Source: Winslowiella arboricola (GTDB lineage: Bacteria; Pseudomonadota; Gammaproteobacteria; Enterobacterales; Enterobacteriaceae). From it: a stretch of 32,000 nt of DNA. Each line of letters opens with the position of its first letter. Within the stretch, counting starts at the first letter, position 1. Made by a program: the position numbers and the translations under genes. This document shows, in pieces, positions 5,225-21,986 of this stretch. The DNA lies in assembly GCF_025527015.1 (NCBI RefSeq), contig NZ_JAODIM010000043.1, positions 1,241,862 through 1,273,861 on the forward strand, read 5' to 3'. The notes under the pieces were generated by a model. The model was given only the letters and a program-made list of their open reading frames with translations, was not told the DNA's origin and ran no database searches.

Positions 5225-5806
5225 TCAGTCCAACCCGTCTAGTTTCTCCTCCAGCTGCTGTTGTGCTGCTGCGTAATCTGCCGGGGTATAGTTCACCACC
5301 TGAATAGGCAGTCCATCCTTACCAACATGTTCAGCTTTCACATTCTCTTTGAATGCCTGCACCGTGACGTGCTTGCCGAGCAGTTCAAGGTTCTTCACCT
5401 TGTCCGGCCATTTGATCTTCTTCAGGATGCCGACCATCTCACGGTCTTCACCGCGCCCTTCGAACATGTCAGCCAGATCGAAGCCGCTCAGGTATCGCCG
5501 CCATGATGCAGGCCATTCAGATACAGGCTTGATGCTCATGTCGTCGGTCATGATGTCGAGAACGTCCATCTGGTCAATCTCGACCAGGCGTCGAAGCACA
5601 TAGGCAGCATCAATTCCCACCTCTTCGTTGCGATCACCCTTCAACTGGACGATACGCTCAACGATGTCAGGTTTTGTTAGGTTCTCGCAACCTGTTGCGC
5701 GGGCTGTCTTCTCGCTGTAGCCCGCCCTGATAGCTGCCTGTGTGGCGTTTAAATCCTTCAGGTACTCACGGGCAAACAGCTCTTGCTTGTCGGTGAGCTT
5801 TGCCAT
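5225..5806 (-). CDS. Terminase small subunit (Terminase_2-like)
   Basis: MAKLTDKQELFAREYLKDLNATQAAIRAGYSEKTARATG is the classic small-terminase HTH. The start was moved to ATG 5806, which sits directly after the stop of the upstream ORF (5808). Confidence 0.85.
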   Translation of the reverse strand: MAKLTDKQELFAREYLKDLNATQAAIRAGYSEKTARATGCENLTKPDIVERIVQLKGDRNEEVGIDAAYVLRRLVEIDQMDVLDIMTDDMSIKPVSEWPASWRRYLSGFDLADMFEGRGEDREMVGILKKIKWPDKVKNLELLGKHVTVQAFKENVKAEHVGKDGLPIQVVNYTPADYAAAQQQLEEKLDGLD

Positions 5807-5807
5807 C

Positions 5808-5999
5808 TTATTTCTCGTAAACTGGTTTGACGTGGTAGCCAACAAGGTTGGCGGTGAAGTAAACAGCATCTGAACCATCATCTTCACTGATGATCAGCAG
5901 ACCATCACTCATCGTCGGGTTTTTCTTTGTCTTGTGATTCCAGGTGGACTCTTCAGAGTTAACAGTGATGTCATAGCTTTTAATCACGCTCTCACCCAT
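5808..5999 (-). CDS. Hypothetical small phage protein (63 aa)
   Basis: Tightly packed between neighbouring genes, touching the upstream stop and lying next to the terS start. Confidence 0.6.
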   Translation of the reverse strand: MGESVIKSYDITVNSEESTWNHKTKKNPTMSDGLLIISEDDGSDAVYFTANLVGYHVKPVYEK

Positions 6000-6220
6000 T
6001 ACATCATCCCCGCAGTTGTTAGCTTGGTGATCAGTGCGTTCAGATCAGTGACGACGCCCGCAACATCTGTCGCAGTTGATGCTGCCTGAGTGGTCATCTT
6101 TTTGACGCCGCCAATTGTTGCGGTAGTGGCCGCTGGCAATGTGTAGCCACCCTCTTCAATATCTTCAGGTGTTGCAACTGTGACGGGGTAGCCGCCGACT
6201 GACATGCATTTAGTGGTCAT
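5999..6220 (-). CDS. Hypothetical small phage protein (73 aa, T/A/G-rich)
   Basis: ORF with an AGGAAA SD-like motif 8 nt upstream. It is the first gene after the moron-island terminator. Confidence 0.55.
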
Positions 6221-6332
6221 TTAGCATTTCCTGCTGGTTGGATAGATATAACCCTCGGCGATGCTGATACCAGCAACCGATGATTCAGTGTGTTTATGCT
6301 GAAAAGTGAACTCAGTGAATGCAGTATTCAGA

Positions 6333-6362
6333 ACAAAATAAAAAAACCGCCCAGAGGCGGTT
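6333..6362 (-). terminator. Rho-independent terminator of the 80-aa moron gene
   Basis: On the - strand: AACCGCC-tctg-GGCGGTT followed by TTTTTTTTATTTTG. Confidence 0.75.
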
Positions 6363-6603
6363 AATGTGTTGAGTCACGATCTGAATAATTAGGCTCTTTA
6401 AGCTCAGCGTGTAAAAAACCCAAAATGGTTGAAGCAGATATCTTATTGAGAGGCTCCTGCAGGAAAGCTGAACCACTTTTTAATTCTGACTCCCATACAA
6501 ACCGCAAACCCAATTCCCATATTTCAACTTTCAAATGGCCTTCTGGAAATTTCTCTCGTGCTATCTCATAAACTTCGTTGATGCCGATTGATTCACCTGA
6601 CAT
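6361..6603 (-). CDS. Hypothetical 80-aa protein (moron), divergent from the GGDEF gene
   Basis: Strong SD (AGGAGG, 4 nt before the ATG), its own terminator, lower GC than the flanking phage genes. No family recognised. Confidence 0.7.
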   Translation of the reverse strand: MSGESIGINEVYEIAREKFPEGHLKVEIWELGLRFVWESELKSGSAFLQEPLNKISASTILGFLHAELKEPNYSDRDSTH

Positions 6604-6896
6604 ATGACCTCCTGTTTAGAGAGGTATCAACATATCATCATCAGGCGCACTCGCAAATGCGCCTTGCGACGGTCACTAAAGAGCGTAAGGGGTTTTCACT
6701 CCAATAAAACCTCCTGCGGACTACTCTTATCAGGAGCATCCTTAAGAATAAAACCAGTCTTCCGACAGCCCCATTATCTTTCCACAAGTGAGTGAGATGC
6801 CAATCCCAAACCACCTAAAAGCCTCCACGATTGTGTAGATTTTTTGTTCAGTACTGGCGTACATTAGGTGTAATGTTCTGTTACAGAGAGCCTGAT

Positions 6897-16134: not shown

Positions 16135-16356
16135 TTATGCGGCGTTGCGGTCACTATTTGGCGGAAAGACTTCATCCAGAGAGCAGTTACCGCCCAGCTG
16201 TTTCAAGCCCTCGACAATCTGACGACATTCATTCAGTCCAGGGGTACGGATGTTCAGCTCATAGTTGGCGATGCGAGATTGCCCCCAACCAATAGCTGAA
16301 GCTAATACAGCCTGCGAAATTCCGATTTTCTTTCGCTGCTGGGCAATGTTGTTCAT
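16135..16356 (-). CDS. cro: Cro-like repressor (XRE-family HTH)
   Basis: The HTH is IGISQAVLASAIGWGQSRIANYE. Start set at ATG 16356 (GGAGG 5 nt upstream). It is divergent from cI. Confidence 0.8.
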   Translation of the reverse strand: MNNIAQQRKKIGISQAVLASAIGWGQSRIANYELNIRTPGLNECRQIVEGLKQLGGNCSLDEVFPPNSDRNAA

Positions 16357-16386
16357 TGCAACCTCCATAGCTTAAGTACAGACGCT

Positions 16387-16464: not shown

Positions 16465-17118
16465 ATGAAAACAATGCATGAAGTGATCGGCGAAAGAATT
16501 AAATCTCTTCGCGAAGCAAAAGGCCTAAGTCAGGCGCAACTATCTAAGTTGTGCGGATGGGCTGCGCCTTCCAGGGTCGGGAATTACGAGCTGGGTGTGC
16601 GTAAGGTTAGTGCTGACGAAGCCATCACCCTCAGCAAGGCACTCGGTGTATCTCCTGCGCAGATAATGTTTGGCGATGATTCAAGTGCTGTTTTTAAGCA
16701 GTATGAATACCCACTATTCACATCAGTGCAGGCCGGATCTTTTGCAGAGGTTGGAACTTATACGGGCGATAACGCCAAGCTGTGGGTCGCCACCACGAAA
16801 AAGGCGAGCGAAAAAGCTTTCTGGCTTGAAGTCTCGGGGCACTCGATGACGGCCCCACAGGGCAGTAAGCCGAGCTTCCCCGAGGGAATGCTGATTTTGG
16901 TGGATCCAGAAGAAGACGTGGAGCCAGGTGATTTCTGTGTCGCGGGTATACACAATGACAGCGAAGTAACATTTAAACGCTTCGTATGGGAAGACGGCAA
17001 GCCGTGGCTGGAACCATTAAACACTAACCCACGATATCAGAGCATTGAGTGCAACGAGAACTGCCGCATCATCGGCAAGGTGGTCAAGGCTCAGTGGCCG
17101 GAAGAGACGTTCGGATAG
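16465..17118 (+). CDS. cI: CI-type repressor (XRE HTH plus S24 LexA-like autopeptidase)
   Basis: N-terminal HTH ([22 protein letters not shown]). An Ala-Gly cleavage site is present (VQAGSF). The Ser (GHSM) and Lys (TFKR) catalytic dyad is present. Confidence 0.9.
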
Positions 17119-17180
17119 CGGTAAAGACGAAGAAGCGGCTGGTTTAGGCCAGTTGACAGAGTGGTGTTCGGGCGGGATGG

Positions 17181-17201
17181 GTCGCAGATATGCGGCCTTT
17201 T
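17181..17201 (+). terminator. Weak candidate terminator after cI
   Basis: GTCGCA-gata-TGCGGC followed by CTTTT. The stem is short, it includes a G-U pair, and the U-tract is short. Confidence 0.3.
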
Positions 17202-17214
17202 GCTATATGTAGTA

Positions 17215-17245
17215 TTGACAAATAGCATTAAAGACAACATATAGT
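17215..17245 (+). promoter_or_regulatory. Candidate sigma70 promoter for the Panacea-like cassette
   Basis: A perfect TTGACA (17215-17220) and TATAGT (17240-17245) with a long 19-nt spacer. CATATA at 17 nt is an alternative -10. Confidence 0.4.
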
Positions 17246-17476
17246 CACTGACCTGTATCGATGCGTCATATTAGCGTTTCGTGCTGTCATTCATGAATCA
17301 TCAGCATTAGATCCTATCCGAAAGTAAGTGACTGAAAACCTTTATGCGATTAAGATAGACGTTATGTTGTACTCGGCGTAATATAAATACTGTAAATCCA
17401 TACAGGCACTTCTGAAAGCTATCAGTTTTTGGAACTGGCTGCTATTGTCTAAATTTAAACCAAAAGGAGGCATAAC

Positions 17477-18001
17477 ATGGCTTATTCTGCTATCGCGGTC
17501 GCTAATGCCTTCATTCAGAAAGCCAAGAAAAAAGGCATCAAAGACATAACGCCAATGAAGCTGCAAAAGCTTGTTTTCTACGCTCATGCGTGGTCACTTG
17601 TTATGTCAAATAAGCCACTTGTTAAAGACAAAGTGTTCGCGTGGCCATATGGGCCGGTGATCGAATCAATTTATCATGAGTTCAAAGGCCATGGTTCTAC
17701 GAACATTACTGTTCCTGGTACCGAGCTGGAGTGGGATGATTCTCCTAGTGCTTTGATAGAGTTTAAGTATGTCACACCTCATGTTCCTGAGGGTGATGAC
17801 CTGTCGCTATCAATCATAGATTCTGTGCTTGAAGTTTATGGCGATCAGTCCGCAGGCGCTCTATCCAATCTGACTCACCGCCCTGGGTCTGCCTGGTATC
17901 ATGTCGTTGAGGAGCACGGCGGTGGCGAGCCACGGAATCTTATTATCCCTAATGATGTTATAAAGGAATGCACATCAAGGGAGTTGGGATTAGGTGATTG
18001 A
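17477..18001 (+). CDS. Panacea/DUF4065-domain protein (SocA/GepA/PanA antitoxin-like), 174 aa
   Basis: The motif block ITPMKLQKLVFYAHAWSL...FAWPYGPVIESIYHEFK...DSVLEVYGDQSAGALSNLTH...W is typical of DUF4065. GGAGG SD 7 nt upstream. Confidence 0.75.
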   Translation: MAYSAIAVANAFIQKAKKKGIKDITPMKLQKLVFYAHAWSLVMSNKPLVKDKVFAWPYGPVIESIYHEFKGHGSTNITVPGTELEWDDSPSALIEFKYVTPHVPEGDDLSLSIIDSVLEVYGDQSAGALSNLTHRPGSAWYHVVEEHGGGEPRNLIIPNDVIKECTSRELGLGD

Positions 18002-18542
18002 CCCAAGCCAGCCTTTAGACAAGAAAAAGGAAGCTCTTGAGGCGCTCATAAAGAGGGCGAGAGAAAAAGTTGAAAGAGCCAGCGTATCCAATGGCGATGA
18101 GAAAACTTCATTGGAGCGCCAGCAGCTGGAAGGGGAAAGAGGTCAAGACGAAAAAGCGCTTGATGACTTAAAAAGCGCCGTTGAATCTCTCGCAAATGCA
18201 GTTCAGCAAATAGACACTCGCTCTAAGGACTTGGAAAACGAAGGGCAAGAGCAATTTCTTACAATGCGCGAAATGTATGCCAAAAAGGCTTACAGATTCG
18301 TATGGTTGTGGTCAGTTGCTCTAATCGTTATTCTTGTGCTTCAGGGGGCAAAATATCCCCACCTTAAGCTCTGGGTTGTTGAATTCAAAGCATCCGATTT
18401 TAATTTGGAATCCAATGTTCTTATAGCTCTAATTTCAGGAGTGACCGTCAATATCGTTGCCGTTTTCATTGTTGTCATGAGAAATCTTTTCCCATCTGAA
18501 ATGAAGGCTAGGACGACAGAGAAGAAAAAGGATGCTGACTAA
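17994..18542 (+). CDS. Coiled-coil protein with two C-terminal TM helices (182 aa); candidate toxin or abortive-infection effector partner
   Basis: GTG start overlaps the upstream stop by 8 nt (GTGATTGA). About 95 aa are charged and helical, followed by the hydrophobic segments FVWLWSVALIVILVLQGA and VLIALISGVTVNIVAVFIVVM. No family recognised. Confidence 0.65.
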   Translation: MIDPSQPLDKKKEALEALIKRAREKVERASVSNGDEKTSLERQQLEGERGQDEKALDDLKSAVESLANAVQQIDTRSKDLENEGQEQFLTMREMYAKKAYRFVWLWSVALIVILVLQGAKYPHLKLWVVEFKASDFNLESNVLIALISGVTVNIVAVFIVVMRNLFPSEMKARTTEKKKDAD

Positions 18543-18567
18543 CCCGGCCACCGCGCCGGGTTTTTTG
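18541..18567 (+). terminator. Rho-independent terminator of the cassette
   Basis: AACCCGGC-caccgc-GCCGGGTT followed by TTTTTG. Confidence 0.8.
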
Positions 18568-18570
18568 TGC

Positions 18571-18747
18571 CTACCGATCCAGCAAATCTATTGCGAACAC
18601 CACAGCCAGGTTAGGCTCACCATCTGACAGCAGCCCAATCATCTCAATTATCGCCTCGTTAGTAACCGCCCTTTCCTCTGCCAGTATCTGAACCACAGCC
18701 TCGCCGATCACCTTCACAATGGCTTCATGCGCCTTTTCCATGTCCAT
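18571..18747 (-). CDS. Hypothetical 58-aa acidic helical protein (not in the ORF track), divergent from PL
   Basis: TAAGGAGG SD 4 nt before ATG 18747. Clean 59-codon frame: MDMEKAHEAIVKVIGEAVVQILAEERAVTNEAIIEMIGLLSDGEPNLAVVFAIDLLDR. Confidence 0.65.
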   Translation of the reverse strand: MDMEKAHEAIVKVIGEAVVQILAEERAVTNEAIIEMIGLLSDGEPNLAVVFAIDLLDR

Positions 18748-18827
18748 ACAGCCTCCTTAGCTTGGAATTTTAAATTACCACGCCCTTTAATATCGCCAAA
18801 ATAAAAAAATAAACACAGAAAATACAT

Positions 18828-18897
18828 ACACATATCGTGTTTCATATGATTTATACACAATTTGTGTTTGACTATATAATCACGTTTTGTGTACATT
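18828..18897 (+). promoter_or_regulatory. OL/PL region
   Basis: There are three 13-mers of the same type as in OR: ACACATATCGTGT (18828-40), ACACAATTTGTGT (18855-67, a perfect palindrome) and TCACGTTTTGTGT (18880-92). TTGACT lies at 18868-73. Possible -10 elements are TACATT (18892-97) or TATAAT (18875-80). Confidence 0.55.
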
Positions 18898-18951
18898 AAT
18901 TCCATCAGCAGGACGCTGAAGCAACAAACCGAACACGGAACAGAGTTCGAA

Positions 18952-18981
18952 GCTCATTAAAATTAGGCGCTGAAAAAGCGC
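18952..18981 (+). promoter_or_regulatory. nutL (boxA GCTCATTAA plus boxB GCGCTGAAAAAGCGC)
   Basis: The spacing and sequence mirror lambda nutL. The boxB loop GAAAA is conserved and the stem carries a compensatory C-G to G-C swap relative to nutR. Confidence 0.75.
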
Positions 18982-19125
18982 AAACATACAAAGCAGAAAG
19001 CTTTGGACAGGCGTGTCGTGGAGCTAAGGCCCATAACCACTCGGGCTGGACTGAGAAGCGACTTGAAATCTGGAAATTGAAATAGGTTCCAGCGCCTGTA
19101 CCAAAGCTAACTGACAGGAGGATGT

Positions 19126-19386
19126 ATGAACGCACAAGAAAAACGCCGTAAAGCCCGCGCTGAGAAGCAGGCAGCATGGAAGCAAGCTAACCCCTTGTCG
19201 GTTGGCGTGAAGGCTAAGCCAGTTCGCCAGGTGCTTATTCTTAATCGTAAAGCGGTTGACCGGGTTGAAAAGGCTATCGCGGTGCAGACCACGAAGTATT
19301 ACCCGAGCGCAGACAACATCTGCTTACCGCAGGTGGCGATATACGCCGCTGGCCATCGTAAATCAGAGAATGTCACAGCGAGGTAG
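19126..19386 (+). CDS. N: Antitermination protein N
   Basis: MNAQEKRRKARAEKQAAWKQANPLSVGVKAKPV..LNRK closely parallels lambda N (MDAQTRRRERRAEKQAQWKAANPLLVGVSAKPV), including the arginine-rich motif. GGAGG SD. Confidence 0.88.
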   Translation: MNAQEKRRKARAEKQAAWKQANPLSVGVKAKPVRQVLILNRKAVDRVEKAIAVQTTKYYPSADNICLPQVAIYAAGHRKSENVTAR

Positions 19387-20939: not shown

Positions 20940-20962
20940 GCCCTCTTCGTGAGGGCTTTTTT
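20940..20962 (+). terminator. Rho-independent terminator
   Basis: GCCCTC-ttcgt-GAGGGC followed by T6. Confidence 0.75.
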
Positions 20963-20981
20963 ATGCCCACAGGAGAGGAAT

Positions 20982-21986
20982 ATGACAGAGACAACGGATA
21001 TTGCAGTTATCGAAATTAAGCCTGACCAGGCACCAGCGCTTTATGTTCCAAACGGGCTTGATGCTTACCTCGAAATCATTCGTCAGCAGGTTAACGAGGT
21101 GCCTGACCTTAGCACCACCAAAGGCCGCACCCGCGTGGCATCACTGGCGGCGCAGGTATCACGCAGCAAGACGGCAATAGAAAAGCCGGGACGTGAGTAC
21201 CTGAAGCGCCTGAAAGAGGCTATGAAGCCAGCTGAAGTGGAAATAAAGCGATTCGTTGATGCCTGTGACGAACTGCGCGATGCAACACGCCAGCCACTGA
21301 CTGAGTGGGAAGCCGAGCAGGATCGCTTAAAAGCGGTAGCGGAAATGGAAGCCTGGCACGAAGAAGCGCTGACGCTGAATGCCGATTTCGACAAAGCGCT
21401 GGCTGAGCGTTTCGAAGCCGATTACGAAGTCGCCCTGCTCATGAATGACAAATTCGACCGTGATGCCGCCGATGCTAAAGCCGAAGCCGAGCGCAAACGG
21501 ATTGCTTACGAACAGGAGTTACAGCAGCAGGCAGCAGATAAGGCCAAACGCGAAGTGGCTGAAGCAGCACGCCTTGAGTTGGAGGCAGCGGCACAGCGCG
21601 AAGCAGCACTTAAAGCCTCAGCTGAGAAAGCAGAGAATGACCGCATTGAAGCGGATCAACGAGCTGAACGTGAAAAGAAAGAAACAGCTGAGCGCGTCGA
21701 GCGTGAAAAAAATGAAGCCATTGCAGCCGAGCAGCTGAAGGCAAAACAGGAAGCCGATCGCATTAAGCTCGAAGCTGAGCAGAAAGAAGCCTCCCGCCTG
21801 GCTGAAGAGAAACGCGTAGCCGATGAAGCTGCCGCCCGCGCAGCTAACGAAGCGCACCGTAAGTCCGTTGGCACTGCCGTTGTTAACGCTCTTATGGCGA
21901 ACGCTGGCCTAACTCGCGTCCAGTCCATTGATGTTCTGATGCAAATCAAAGACGGCAACATCCCGCATACCAGCATCACCTACTAA
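20982..21986 (+). CDS. DUF1351-like recombination-module protein with a long E/A/K/R coiled coil
   Basis: Start set at ATG 20982 (AGGAGAGG SD). The N-terminal region resembles DUF1351 proteins, which commonly accompany Erf/RecT recombinases. Confidence 0.6.
   Translation: MTETTDIAVIEIKPDQAPALYVPNGLDAYLEIIRQQVNEVPDLSTTKGRTRVASLAAQVSRSKTAIEKPGREYLKRLKEAMKPAEVEIKRFVDACDELRDATRQPLTEWEAEQDRLKAVAEMEAWHEEALTLNADFDKALAERFEADYEVALLMNDKFDRDAADAKAEAERKRIAYEQELQQQAADKAKREVAEAARLELEAAAQREAALKASAEKAENDRIEADQRAEREKKETAERVEREKNEAIAAEQLKAKQEADRIKLEAEQKEASRLAEEKRVADEAAARAANEAHRKSVGTAVVNALMANAGLTRVQSIDVLMQIKDGNIPHTSITY

Follow-up and report, generated by a model that had tools for sequence, protein, structure and literature searches.

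A probable PanA-PanT toxin-antitoxin cassette preceded by a conserved LexA box in the rexAB slot of a lambdoid prophage of Winslowiella arboricola

A stretch of 32,000 nt from Winslowiella arboricola (contig NZ_JAODIM010000043.1 of assembly GCF_025527015.1), here called the window, was analysed, and all coordinates are given as window positions. A lambdoid prophage of this organism carries a two-gene cassette, panA-panT, between the gene of a cI-type repressor and the region comprising the left operators (OL), the leftward promoter (PL) and the antiterminator gene N. The first gene encodes a stand-alone Panacea protein and the second a small protein with two predicted transmembrane (TM) helices, while the leader of the pair contains a LexA box that is conserved in related loci and probably places the cassette under the control of the SOS response. 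The cassette and its leader consist of the following elements.

17179-17198, plus strand: terminator-like hairpin after cI, left edge of the cassette; 8 pairs (5 G-C) followed by TTTGCTAT in the terminator scan
17215-17245, plus strand: sigma-70-like distal promoter candidate P1, with TTGACA (17215-17220), a 19-nt spacer and TATAGT (17240-17245), or alternatively a 17-nt spacer and CATATA
17280-17308, plus strand: element A (29 nt), CGTGCTGTCATTCATGAAT-N4-AGCA, holding the palindrome ATTCATGAAT (17289-17298)
17382-17387, plus strand: putative proximal promoter candidate P2, a -10-like TATAAA abutting the 5' side of the LexA box
17388-17407: LexA (SOS) box TACTGTAAATCCATACAGGC, found by leader alignment; the ATG of panA lies 69 nt further downstream
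17410-17434, plus strand: possible RNA hairpin of the 5' untranslated region (5'-UTR), an 11-bp stem in RNAfold directly after the LexA box
17466-17470, plus strand: Shine-Dalgarno sequence GGAGG of panA, with AAGGAGG invariant across 10 aligned leaders
17477-18001, plus strand: panA, 174 aa, start codon ATG, WP_267144338.1
17994-18542, plus strand: panT, 182 aa, start codon GTG, WP_267144337.1
18541-18572, both strands: bidirectional intrinsic terminator AACCCGGCCACCGCGCCGGGTT with a T-run, right edge of the cassette; strong terminator at 18541-18562 in the scan

The two coding regions overlap by 8 nt, GTGATTGA, and the GTG of panT is preceded by GGGAG 9 nt upstream. The genes, the Shine-Dalgarno sequence, the terminator, the TTGACA and TATAGT hexamers and the palindrome were all located where an earlier sequence-only reading of this DNA had placed them. 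The boundaries proposed in that reading, 17181-18567, were a good fit to the conserved unit, the DNA similarity to the related loci L026, L010, L012 and L001 stopping at 18565-18572. On the left side the similarity starts inside the leader, at 17279 for L026 and at 17383 for Yersinia. The lower GC content attributed to the cassette was also verified, with a value of 43.8% for 17181-18567 versus 50.1% for the whole window.

The product of gene 1 had been described as a DUF4065/Panacea protein, and profile hidden Markov model searches confirmed this description. It matched Pfam PF13274 SocA_Panacea with an E-value of 1.4e-19 and 71.5 bits (cut-off 25.7), residues 29-141 covering positions 1-113 of the 113-position profile, and phrog_1281 with an E-value of 6e-40. 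It shares 44% identity with the PanA found in a prophage of E. coli S51, and gene 1 was established as encoding a stand-alone Panacea (PanA) protein. Its Pfam coverage consisted of the Panacea domain only, with no DNA-binding domain, and the PanA partner of the Yersinia orthologue described below is marked 'noNTD' in the table of Kurata et al. 2022 (PMC8832971). According to the argument of Ernits et al. 2023, Panacea probably does not regulate its own transcription and may be a sensor. A degenerate Panacea gene was observed in an integrative and conjugative element of E. coli RM11911 (L083, 2794-3567). Its annotated product has 257 aa, an unusual N-terminal extension and a divergent C-terminus, and with no PanT-like open reading frame (ORF) behind it the gene looks like a decayed PanA-PanT (PanAT) pair.

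The charged N-terminus of about 95 residues and the two hydrophobic helices noticed previously in the product of gene 2 were reproduced by hydropathy analysis and by AlphaFold. The N-terminal 95 residues contain 16 K+R and 22 D+E, and the hydrophobic segments span approximately residues 101-119 (TM1) and 141-162 (TM2), with K/R-rich flanks on the N- and C-terminal sides. The AlphaFold model, calculated from a 55-sequence alignment, showed helices at 8-32, 51-118 (continuous into TM1), 140-165 and 171-180, forming a helical hairpin in agreement with the two TM segments derived from hydropathy. Alignments of 22 and 55 relatives revealed a variable N-terminal region and a conserved core characterized by a juxtamembrane motif (R92, A96, K98-A99-Y100), by T151/N153 in TM2 and by an RNLFP motif after TM2. 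R92, A96, K98, A99, Y100, T151, N153, A156, F158, V161, R163, L165 and P167 were invariant among the 22 sequences, and nine positions (R92, A99, T151, A156, F158, V161, R163, L165 and P167) among the 55.

Close homologues of PanT (54 proteins) were found across Enterobacterales, every one labelled hypothetical. A profile search of 1.84 billion cluster representatives returned 2297 relatives at E<=1e-3, of which 656 reach 1e-10; the match is confined to positions 60-175 or so in almost all of them, and just 15, corresponding to the long form present in this prophage, reach 1e-30. Short forms of 127-128 aa are paired with PanA in E. coli prophages, and residues 91-168 of PanT align with an E-value of 1e-8 to the 127-aa PanA partner of the E. 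coli S51 lambdoid prophage. Relatives found in E. coli were WP_060710354.1, WP_061892490.1 and WP_001402904.1. Searches of Pfam, PADLOC and NCBIfam assigned PanT to no curated family, all matches being sub-threshold. Those to BLOC1_2, EMP24_GP25L, Vps53_N, LmuB, SMC-like and ABC-F proteins fell far under the cut-offs on the charged helical region and were rejected as coiled-coil or compositional. Foldseek comparison of the PanT model with the PDB gave no match, and profile searches of PDB sequences gave no relevant one.

An orthologue of PanT (P0013, WP_098904332.1) from Yersinia frederiksenii FDAARGOS_417 shows 65% identity over 92% of PanT (E-value 7e-64). This protein appears in Dataset S1 of Kurata et al. 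2022 (PMC8832971) as a member of cluster T3 (pT3/T3), with WP_098904333.1 as its PanA partner, the antitoxin gene preceding the toxin gene at a distance of -8, and the flag 'notest'. As this 65%-identical orthologue is listed there, PanT was assigned to T3, and gene 2 is a predicted member of a catalogued PanT cluster, not a new effector. The novel membrane effector envisaged in the sequence-only reading thus belongs to a family already catalogued as a PanA partner, and both the gene family and the small membrane-depolarising PanT class are already known, an orthologue being present in the published candidate list. The T3 PanT of E. coli STEC O31 and the T12 PanT of Bartonella combine a charged N-terminus with TM helices at the C-terminus; each was reported to depolarise and permeabilise E. 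coli membranes, an effect that its own PanA neutralises (Kurata et al. 2022, PMC8832971). The validated T3 pair of E. coli STEC O31 is PanA WP_000287252.1/PanT WP_000019185.1 (PMC8832971). The hydropathy, charge and AlphaFold helices of PanT fit the published T3 description.

The cassette resembles the T3 PanATs in its stand-alone Panacea antitoxin encoded upstream of the toxin, the Yersinia orthologue being itself a T3 protein with the same -8 overlap. Its subfamily (180-185 aa, with a long N-terminal helical region) consists of predicted toxins, and it differs from the published systems in its probable LexA control and its placement behind cI, neither of which is described in PMC8832971. The T12 pair of Bartonella choladocola (apis) (PanT:PanA, NetFlax D11) likewise combines a depolarising pore-forming toxin with direct neutralisation by a stand-alone Panacea protein, although its toxin belongs to a different cluster.

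PanA was found directly upstream of PanT in every enterobacterial locus examined, mostly with the same 8-nt overlap. The pair and its overlap recur within unrelated surroundings in Salmonella, Klebsiella, Yersinia, Cronobacter, Enterobacter, Cedecea and Erwiniaceae, the identical overlap being present in at least 10 unrelated genomic contexts. The Salmonella copy lies at ssrA beside a polyvalent MuF/LPD protein and the Klebsiella copy in a primase/T5orf172 element; those of Yersinia, Cedecea and E. coli stand between integrase/DinI and tail-fibre genes, and in Cronobacter, Enterobacter and a further Erwiniaceae genome the pair follows genes for the tail tip and the tail spike. In prophages the cassette occurs either behind cI or at the end carrying the tail-fibre genes and the attachment (att) site, the tail-fibre end accounting for the majority of copies. 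The terminator of the cassette also stands behind the PanT gene of E. coli S51. The co-occurrence check therefore upheld the expectation that the pair is conserved as neighbours across genomes. Over the loci compared, the pairing of PanA and PanT is far beyond chance and supports the view of a conserved, translationally coupled, autonomous mobile cassette. Nucleotide and protein searches of the phage collection gave no matches, and a scan of genome contigs returned only distant relatives, in Pseudomonas, Serratia and Citrobacter.

The LexA box emerged from the alignment of the leaders and matches the consensus at 15 of 20 positions. The sequence CTGT-N8-ACAG occurs only once in the window, where 0.41 occurrences are expected by chance, and this single box, taken alone, is not significant. 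An exact CTGT-N8-ACAG was found within 200 nt upstream of panA in 34 of the 59 distinct related loci, to be compared with a background of 0.019 per 200 nt computed over all fetched loci. The carriers include Klebsiella, Yersinia, Cronobacter, Cedecea, Hafnia (two boxes), Serratia, the short-PanT clade and the Pseudomonas relatives. When 10 diverged leaders (61% mean identity) were aligned, the only invariant blocks were CTGT, ATACAG, the Shine-Dalgarno sequence and the ATG. Since the LexA box is kept while the rest of the leader diverges, the PanAT cassette is probably SOS-regulated, with predicted binding of LexA. In most leaders an AT-rich -10-like hexamer abuts the box (TATAAA here, TATAAT in L012, L034 and L067, and also CATAAA), which is the usual layout at LexA-repressed promoters. 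SOS genes, namely DinI, UmuD-like proteins and Y-family polymerase, are often neighbours of the pair at other loci. No paper linking Panacea/DUF4065 to LexA was found in the searchable literature, and SOS is not mentioned by Kurata et al. 2022 (PMC8832971); conserved LexA control of PanAT is apparently unreported and new here.

The surroundings of the other copies provided some further observations. PanAT repeatedly adjoins SOS-associated morons encoding DinI or a UmuD-like protein with a Y-family polymerase (L010, L030/L031, L082, L084, L026 and L035), and these copies lie at prophage ends near att sites such as ssrA, which suggests that PanAT and its neighbours form a cluster of LexA-controlled cargo genes. 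In Cedecea lapagei (PIQM01000002.1) the DinI-PanA-PanT block is present twice (L030 and L031), about 41 kb apart and with the same downstream genes after each copy, indicating a duplicated segment or two related prophages.

Further upstream in the leader, the promoter ascribed to the cassette in the sequence-only reading was sustained only in part: TTGACA and TATAGT are present, but the consensus scan made no call at P1 owing to its 19-nt spacer. The arrangement TTGACA...CATATAG is kept in Klebsiella L005 and in viral L037, TTGACA or TTGACT follows the hairpin in L012 and L070, and P1 may act as a promoter. The 22-nt hairpin sequence (17180-17201) is 95% identical ahead of the cassette in Cronobacter L012, and in L070 the same hairpin stands behind the stop codon of cI. 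The plus strand of the whole window contains only two TTGACA hexamers, at 17153-17158 and 17215-17220, both within roughly 70 nt past cI.

Element A is better conserved than the coding DNA in the comparison with L026, the 28 nt at 17279-17306 being 96% identical versus 71% for the coding DNA. L034, L056 and L067 contain the element as well; it comes immediately behind the stop codon of cI in the first and the last of these, and in L056 its palindrome is broken, ATTCGTGAAT. As many as 16 perfect 10-bp palindromes occur in the window, and ATTCATGAAT alone is not beyond chance; it is noteworthy through its conservation in other loci. The proposal that this palindrome is an autoregulatory operator bound by PanA was discarded, because PanA lacks any DNA-binding domain and Panacea autoregulation is argued against by Ernits et al. 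2023. An 11-codon ORF at 17262-17297 was considered as a leader peptide and ruled out, as it is not conserved in L026. The leaders of L005, L028, L030, L037, L040 and L041 share with the region 17280-17380 the motifs ATGCCATCC-N7-8-AGTGAC and ATGTACT, followed at several loci, upstream of the LexA box, by a short hairpin TTTACC-N5-GGTAAA with varying loop.

Downstream of the LexA box, the stem at 17410-17434 would be a weak candidate for a 5'-UTR structure if transcription starts at the box. RNAfold analysis of a 101-nt stretch of the 5'-UTR gave a z value of -1.07, which is not significant. RNAalifold recovered the stem from 10 leaders with many G-U pairs, 3 compensatory pairs and a small covariation term (-0.17), and an Rfam scan of 17100-19150 detected no RNA family.

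The genes and sites that flank the cassette are those of the immunity region, as listed here.

16135-16368, minus strand: gene of a cro-like helix-turn-helix protein, facing cI across an operator-rich spacer
16465-17118, plus strand: cI-type repressor gene (Pfam HTH_3 9.4e-12 and Peptidase_S24 2.7e-23; phrog_4 transcriptional repressor 2.9e-54)
18827-18897, plus strand: OL operators and PL, with three dyads TACACATATCGTGTT, TACACAATTTGTGTT and AATCACGTTTTGTGTA of the type ACAC-N5-6-GTGT at 18827-18893
19126-19386, plus strand: N antiterminator gene (Pfam N_peptide 1.4e-14)

The OL dyads have 9-mers in common with the right operators (OR), and the consensus scan identified two overlapping promoter-like sites at 18852-18897, in the PL region. 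The location of the cassette between cI and OL/PL on the cI strand was confirmed, and the order cro-cI-PanA-PanT recurs in the viral contigs L034, L067 and L070 and in the E. coli S51 prophage. The cI proteins of the three viral contigs end in the same WPEE.FG motif; the ORF after the pair in L034 and L070 appears, from reading of the sequence, to have an N-like arginine-rich motif, and in the E. coli S51 prophage kil, gam, bet and exo follow the pair. Both the long and the short PanT forms occupy this slot, which is a recurrent yet minority location for the family.

The same slot between cI and OL/PL is occupied in phage lambda by rexA and rexB, again two genes encoding a cytosolic and a membrane protein, and the outcome predicted for the cassette, loss of the membrane potential, is also shared. 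RexB has four TM helices, compared with two in PanT, and searches of Pfam, PHROGs, NCBIfam and PADLOC gave no Rex-family hit for either protein of the cassette. In lambda, rexAB is co-transcribed with cI from the repressor maintenance promoter (PRM), whereas in this prophage the interval between cI and panA contains the terminator-like hairpin with a short T-run, the promoter candidates and the LexA-box leader. The assumption of the sequence-only reading that the pair is expressed in the lysogen like rexAB was thus weakened, because a LexA box precedes panA, a hairpin (17179-17198) follows cI and PanA has no DNA-binding domain; the hairpin and the conserved box point to SOS control rather than to simple co-transcription from PRM. 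These data suggest that expression of the cassette would rise with the SOS response, the same signal that cleaves S24-type cI.

Taken together, we consider it likely that panA-panT is a type II toxin-antitoxin (TA) cassette of the membrane PanT kind (T3), carried as a moron in the immunity region of the lambdoid prophage. The two genes would be transcribed as one bicistronic mRNA, with translational coupling via the 8-nt overlap. PanT is predicted to insert in the inner membrane as an N-in/C-in helical hairpin, according to the positive-inside rule, with its cytoplasmic helical N-terminal region probably driving oligomerisation. By analogy with the validated membrane PanTs, free PanT would depolarise or permeabilise the membrane and stop growth, and cytosolic stand-alone PanA would bind PanT directly and hold it inactive, as in other type II pairs. 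LexA bound at the proximal promoter would keep the operon low in undamaged cells, and the SOS response would release it, coincident with the cleavage of the S24-type cI. Host LexA could plausibly stand in as the regulator for a PanA that lacks a DNA-binding domain. For this PanAT we infer the toxicity, the direct neutralisation, the topology, the binding of LexA and the biological role.

Several points weigh against this picture. The confidence of the AlphaFold model of PanT is moderate (pLDDT, predicted local distance difference test, 70.9; pTM, predicted template modelling score, 0.34). A real caveat is that the link of PanT to the validated T3 toxin WP_000019185.1 comes from the clustering by Kurata et al., in which T3 groups TM-rich proteins only loosely (FlaGs/jackhmmer). 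The proposed toxicity and neutralisation are carried over from other members of the cluster, and several predicted PanT candidates were non-toxic in E. coli (Kurata et al. 2022, PMC8832971). As for regulation, the Salmonella and Enterobacter copies have no LexA box, a convincing -35 for P2 was not found in the aligned leaders, and P1 may give some LexA-independent transcription.

The most plausible roles of a LexA-controlled PanAT cassette would be abortive infection or exclusion, in the manner of RexAB or RosmerTA, or an SOS-linked growth arrest like that of TisB; it could also serve the stabilisation of the element. TisB is a small membrane-depolarising toxin induced by DNA damage. A LexA box ahead of the toxin operon is a feature that the cassette has in common with the E. 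coli SOS toxin systems (tisB/istR-1, symER, hokE, dinJ-yafQ and yafNO), which rely on RNA antitoxins or other protein families, none with a Panacea antitoxin. RosmerTA (RmrT/RmrA) of Gordonia phage Kita is likewise a phage-encoded TA with a membrane-depolarising toxin, which depolarises and permeabilises the membrane and defends against some coliphages, and it differs in its antitoxin type and in its unrelated protein families.

A more specific scheme, which we put forward only tentatively and judge rather unlikely as a whole, would make the cassette an SOS-licensed abortive-infection switch in the role of RexAB. LexA would hold PanAT low, its level would rise upon DNA damage or when an infecting phage brings in DNA ends, and PanA would sense a phage or induction cue and free the depolarising PanT, with element A, P1 and the 5'-UTR hairpin acting as a second control layer. 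If true, no earlier PanAT would have had its trigger and regulator defined, and the cassette would exemplify a TA that borrows host LexA because its antitoxin cannot bind DNA.

Alternatively, the cassette might be an exclusion module closer to RexAB that the lysogen expresses at all times, through PRM read-through and/or from P1, and in which PanA senses the phage and PanT collapses the membrane potential. Its position exactly between cI and OL/PL, repeated in the four prophages and contigs mentioned above, agrees with this idea, as do the perfect -35 of P1 kept in L005 and L037, the lack of a terminator between cI and the cassette in L034 and L067, the defence provided by a phage membrane-toxin TA such as RosmerTA and the proposal that Panacea is a sensor. 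However, neither protein is homologous to RexA or RexB or gave a significant match to a PADLOC model, a terminator-like hairpin follows cI in this prophage, and the conservation of the LexA box speaks for a cassette that is repressed as long as the lysogen is unstressed. Moreover, most copies lie at prophage ends beside tail-fibre genes, outside immunity regions, and the searchable literature holds no report of phage defence by PanAT. Constitutive exclusion of this kind is therefore doubtful.

A role of PanT in the lytic cycle, as a holin-like or superinfection-exclusion protein made on SOS induction with the lytic genes while PanA acts as chaperone or timer, seems very improbable. SOS control would synchronise expression with cI cleavage, and the small size of PanT, its two TM helices with predicted N-in/C-in topology and its highly charged C-terminus resemble class II holins, whose topology is similar. 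Yet the cassette lies outside the lysis cassette in all loci seen, with satellite-like and chromosomal contexts among them, it is flanked by its own terminators on both sides, and the validated partners of Panacea proteins are growth-arresting toxins.

Finally, SocB targets DnaN, the SocAB mechanism being adaptor-based and not one of sequestration, and a type VI mode like that of Caulobacter SocAB, with PanA as a ClpXP adaptor promoting toxin degradation, can be dismissed as most unlikely: PanA shares the Panacea domain with SocA and matched the NCBIfam SocA_antitoxin equivalog NF047745 (E-value 2.6e-32), but its 111.9 bits are far under the cut-off of 190, PanT is unrelated to SocB, and stable PanA:PanT complexes were shown for five other PanATs, classed as type II (Kurata et al.).

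The published work on PanATs validated their toxicity and neutralisation and did not identify a natural regulator or cue. A clade of membrane-toxin PanATs with a LexA box, present in the rexAB slot, offers a testable handle on SOS induction, prophage induction and superinfection, and it suggests how antitoxins without a DNA-binding domain stay under transcriptional control.

Some minor features of the region were also recorded. A 58-aa ORF on the minus strand (18571-18747), with AAGGAGG 5 nt before its ATG, matched phrog_3946 (7e-13), with a weak match to Pfam YmgB/AriR (0.0039). The ORF and panT converge on the bidirectional terminator that they share, and the promoter of the ORF must lie within or beside the OL operators, divergent from PL. 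Homologues are found convergent directly after panT in L070 (4451-4603) and L035 (2241-2426), and in L026 the homologue follows, on the same strand, a Y-family polymerase gene cluster that carries a LexA box.

The terminator of the cassette (AACCCGGCCACCGCGCCGGGTTTTTT, 18540-18574) recurs with 96-100% identity after unrelated E. coli genes, for example beside a YafO-family toxin. Such recurrences were found in E. coli genomes H1-H8 and at 3852-3876 of L009, and the near-identity nucleotide matches in E. coli genomes were confined to this generic terminator, which appears to be a widely shared terminator module. In the early-left operon, a 345-aa protein encoded at 20949-21986 on the plus strand contains a long, highly charged and repeat-like region rich in A/E/K/R, and the related viral contig L070 has a conserved counterpart (5689-6693).

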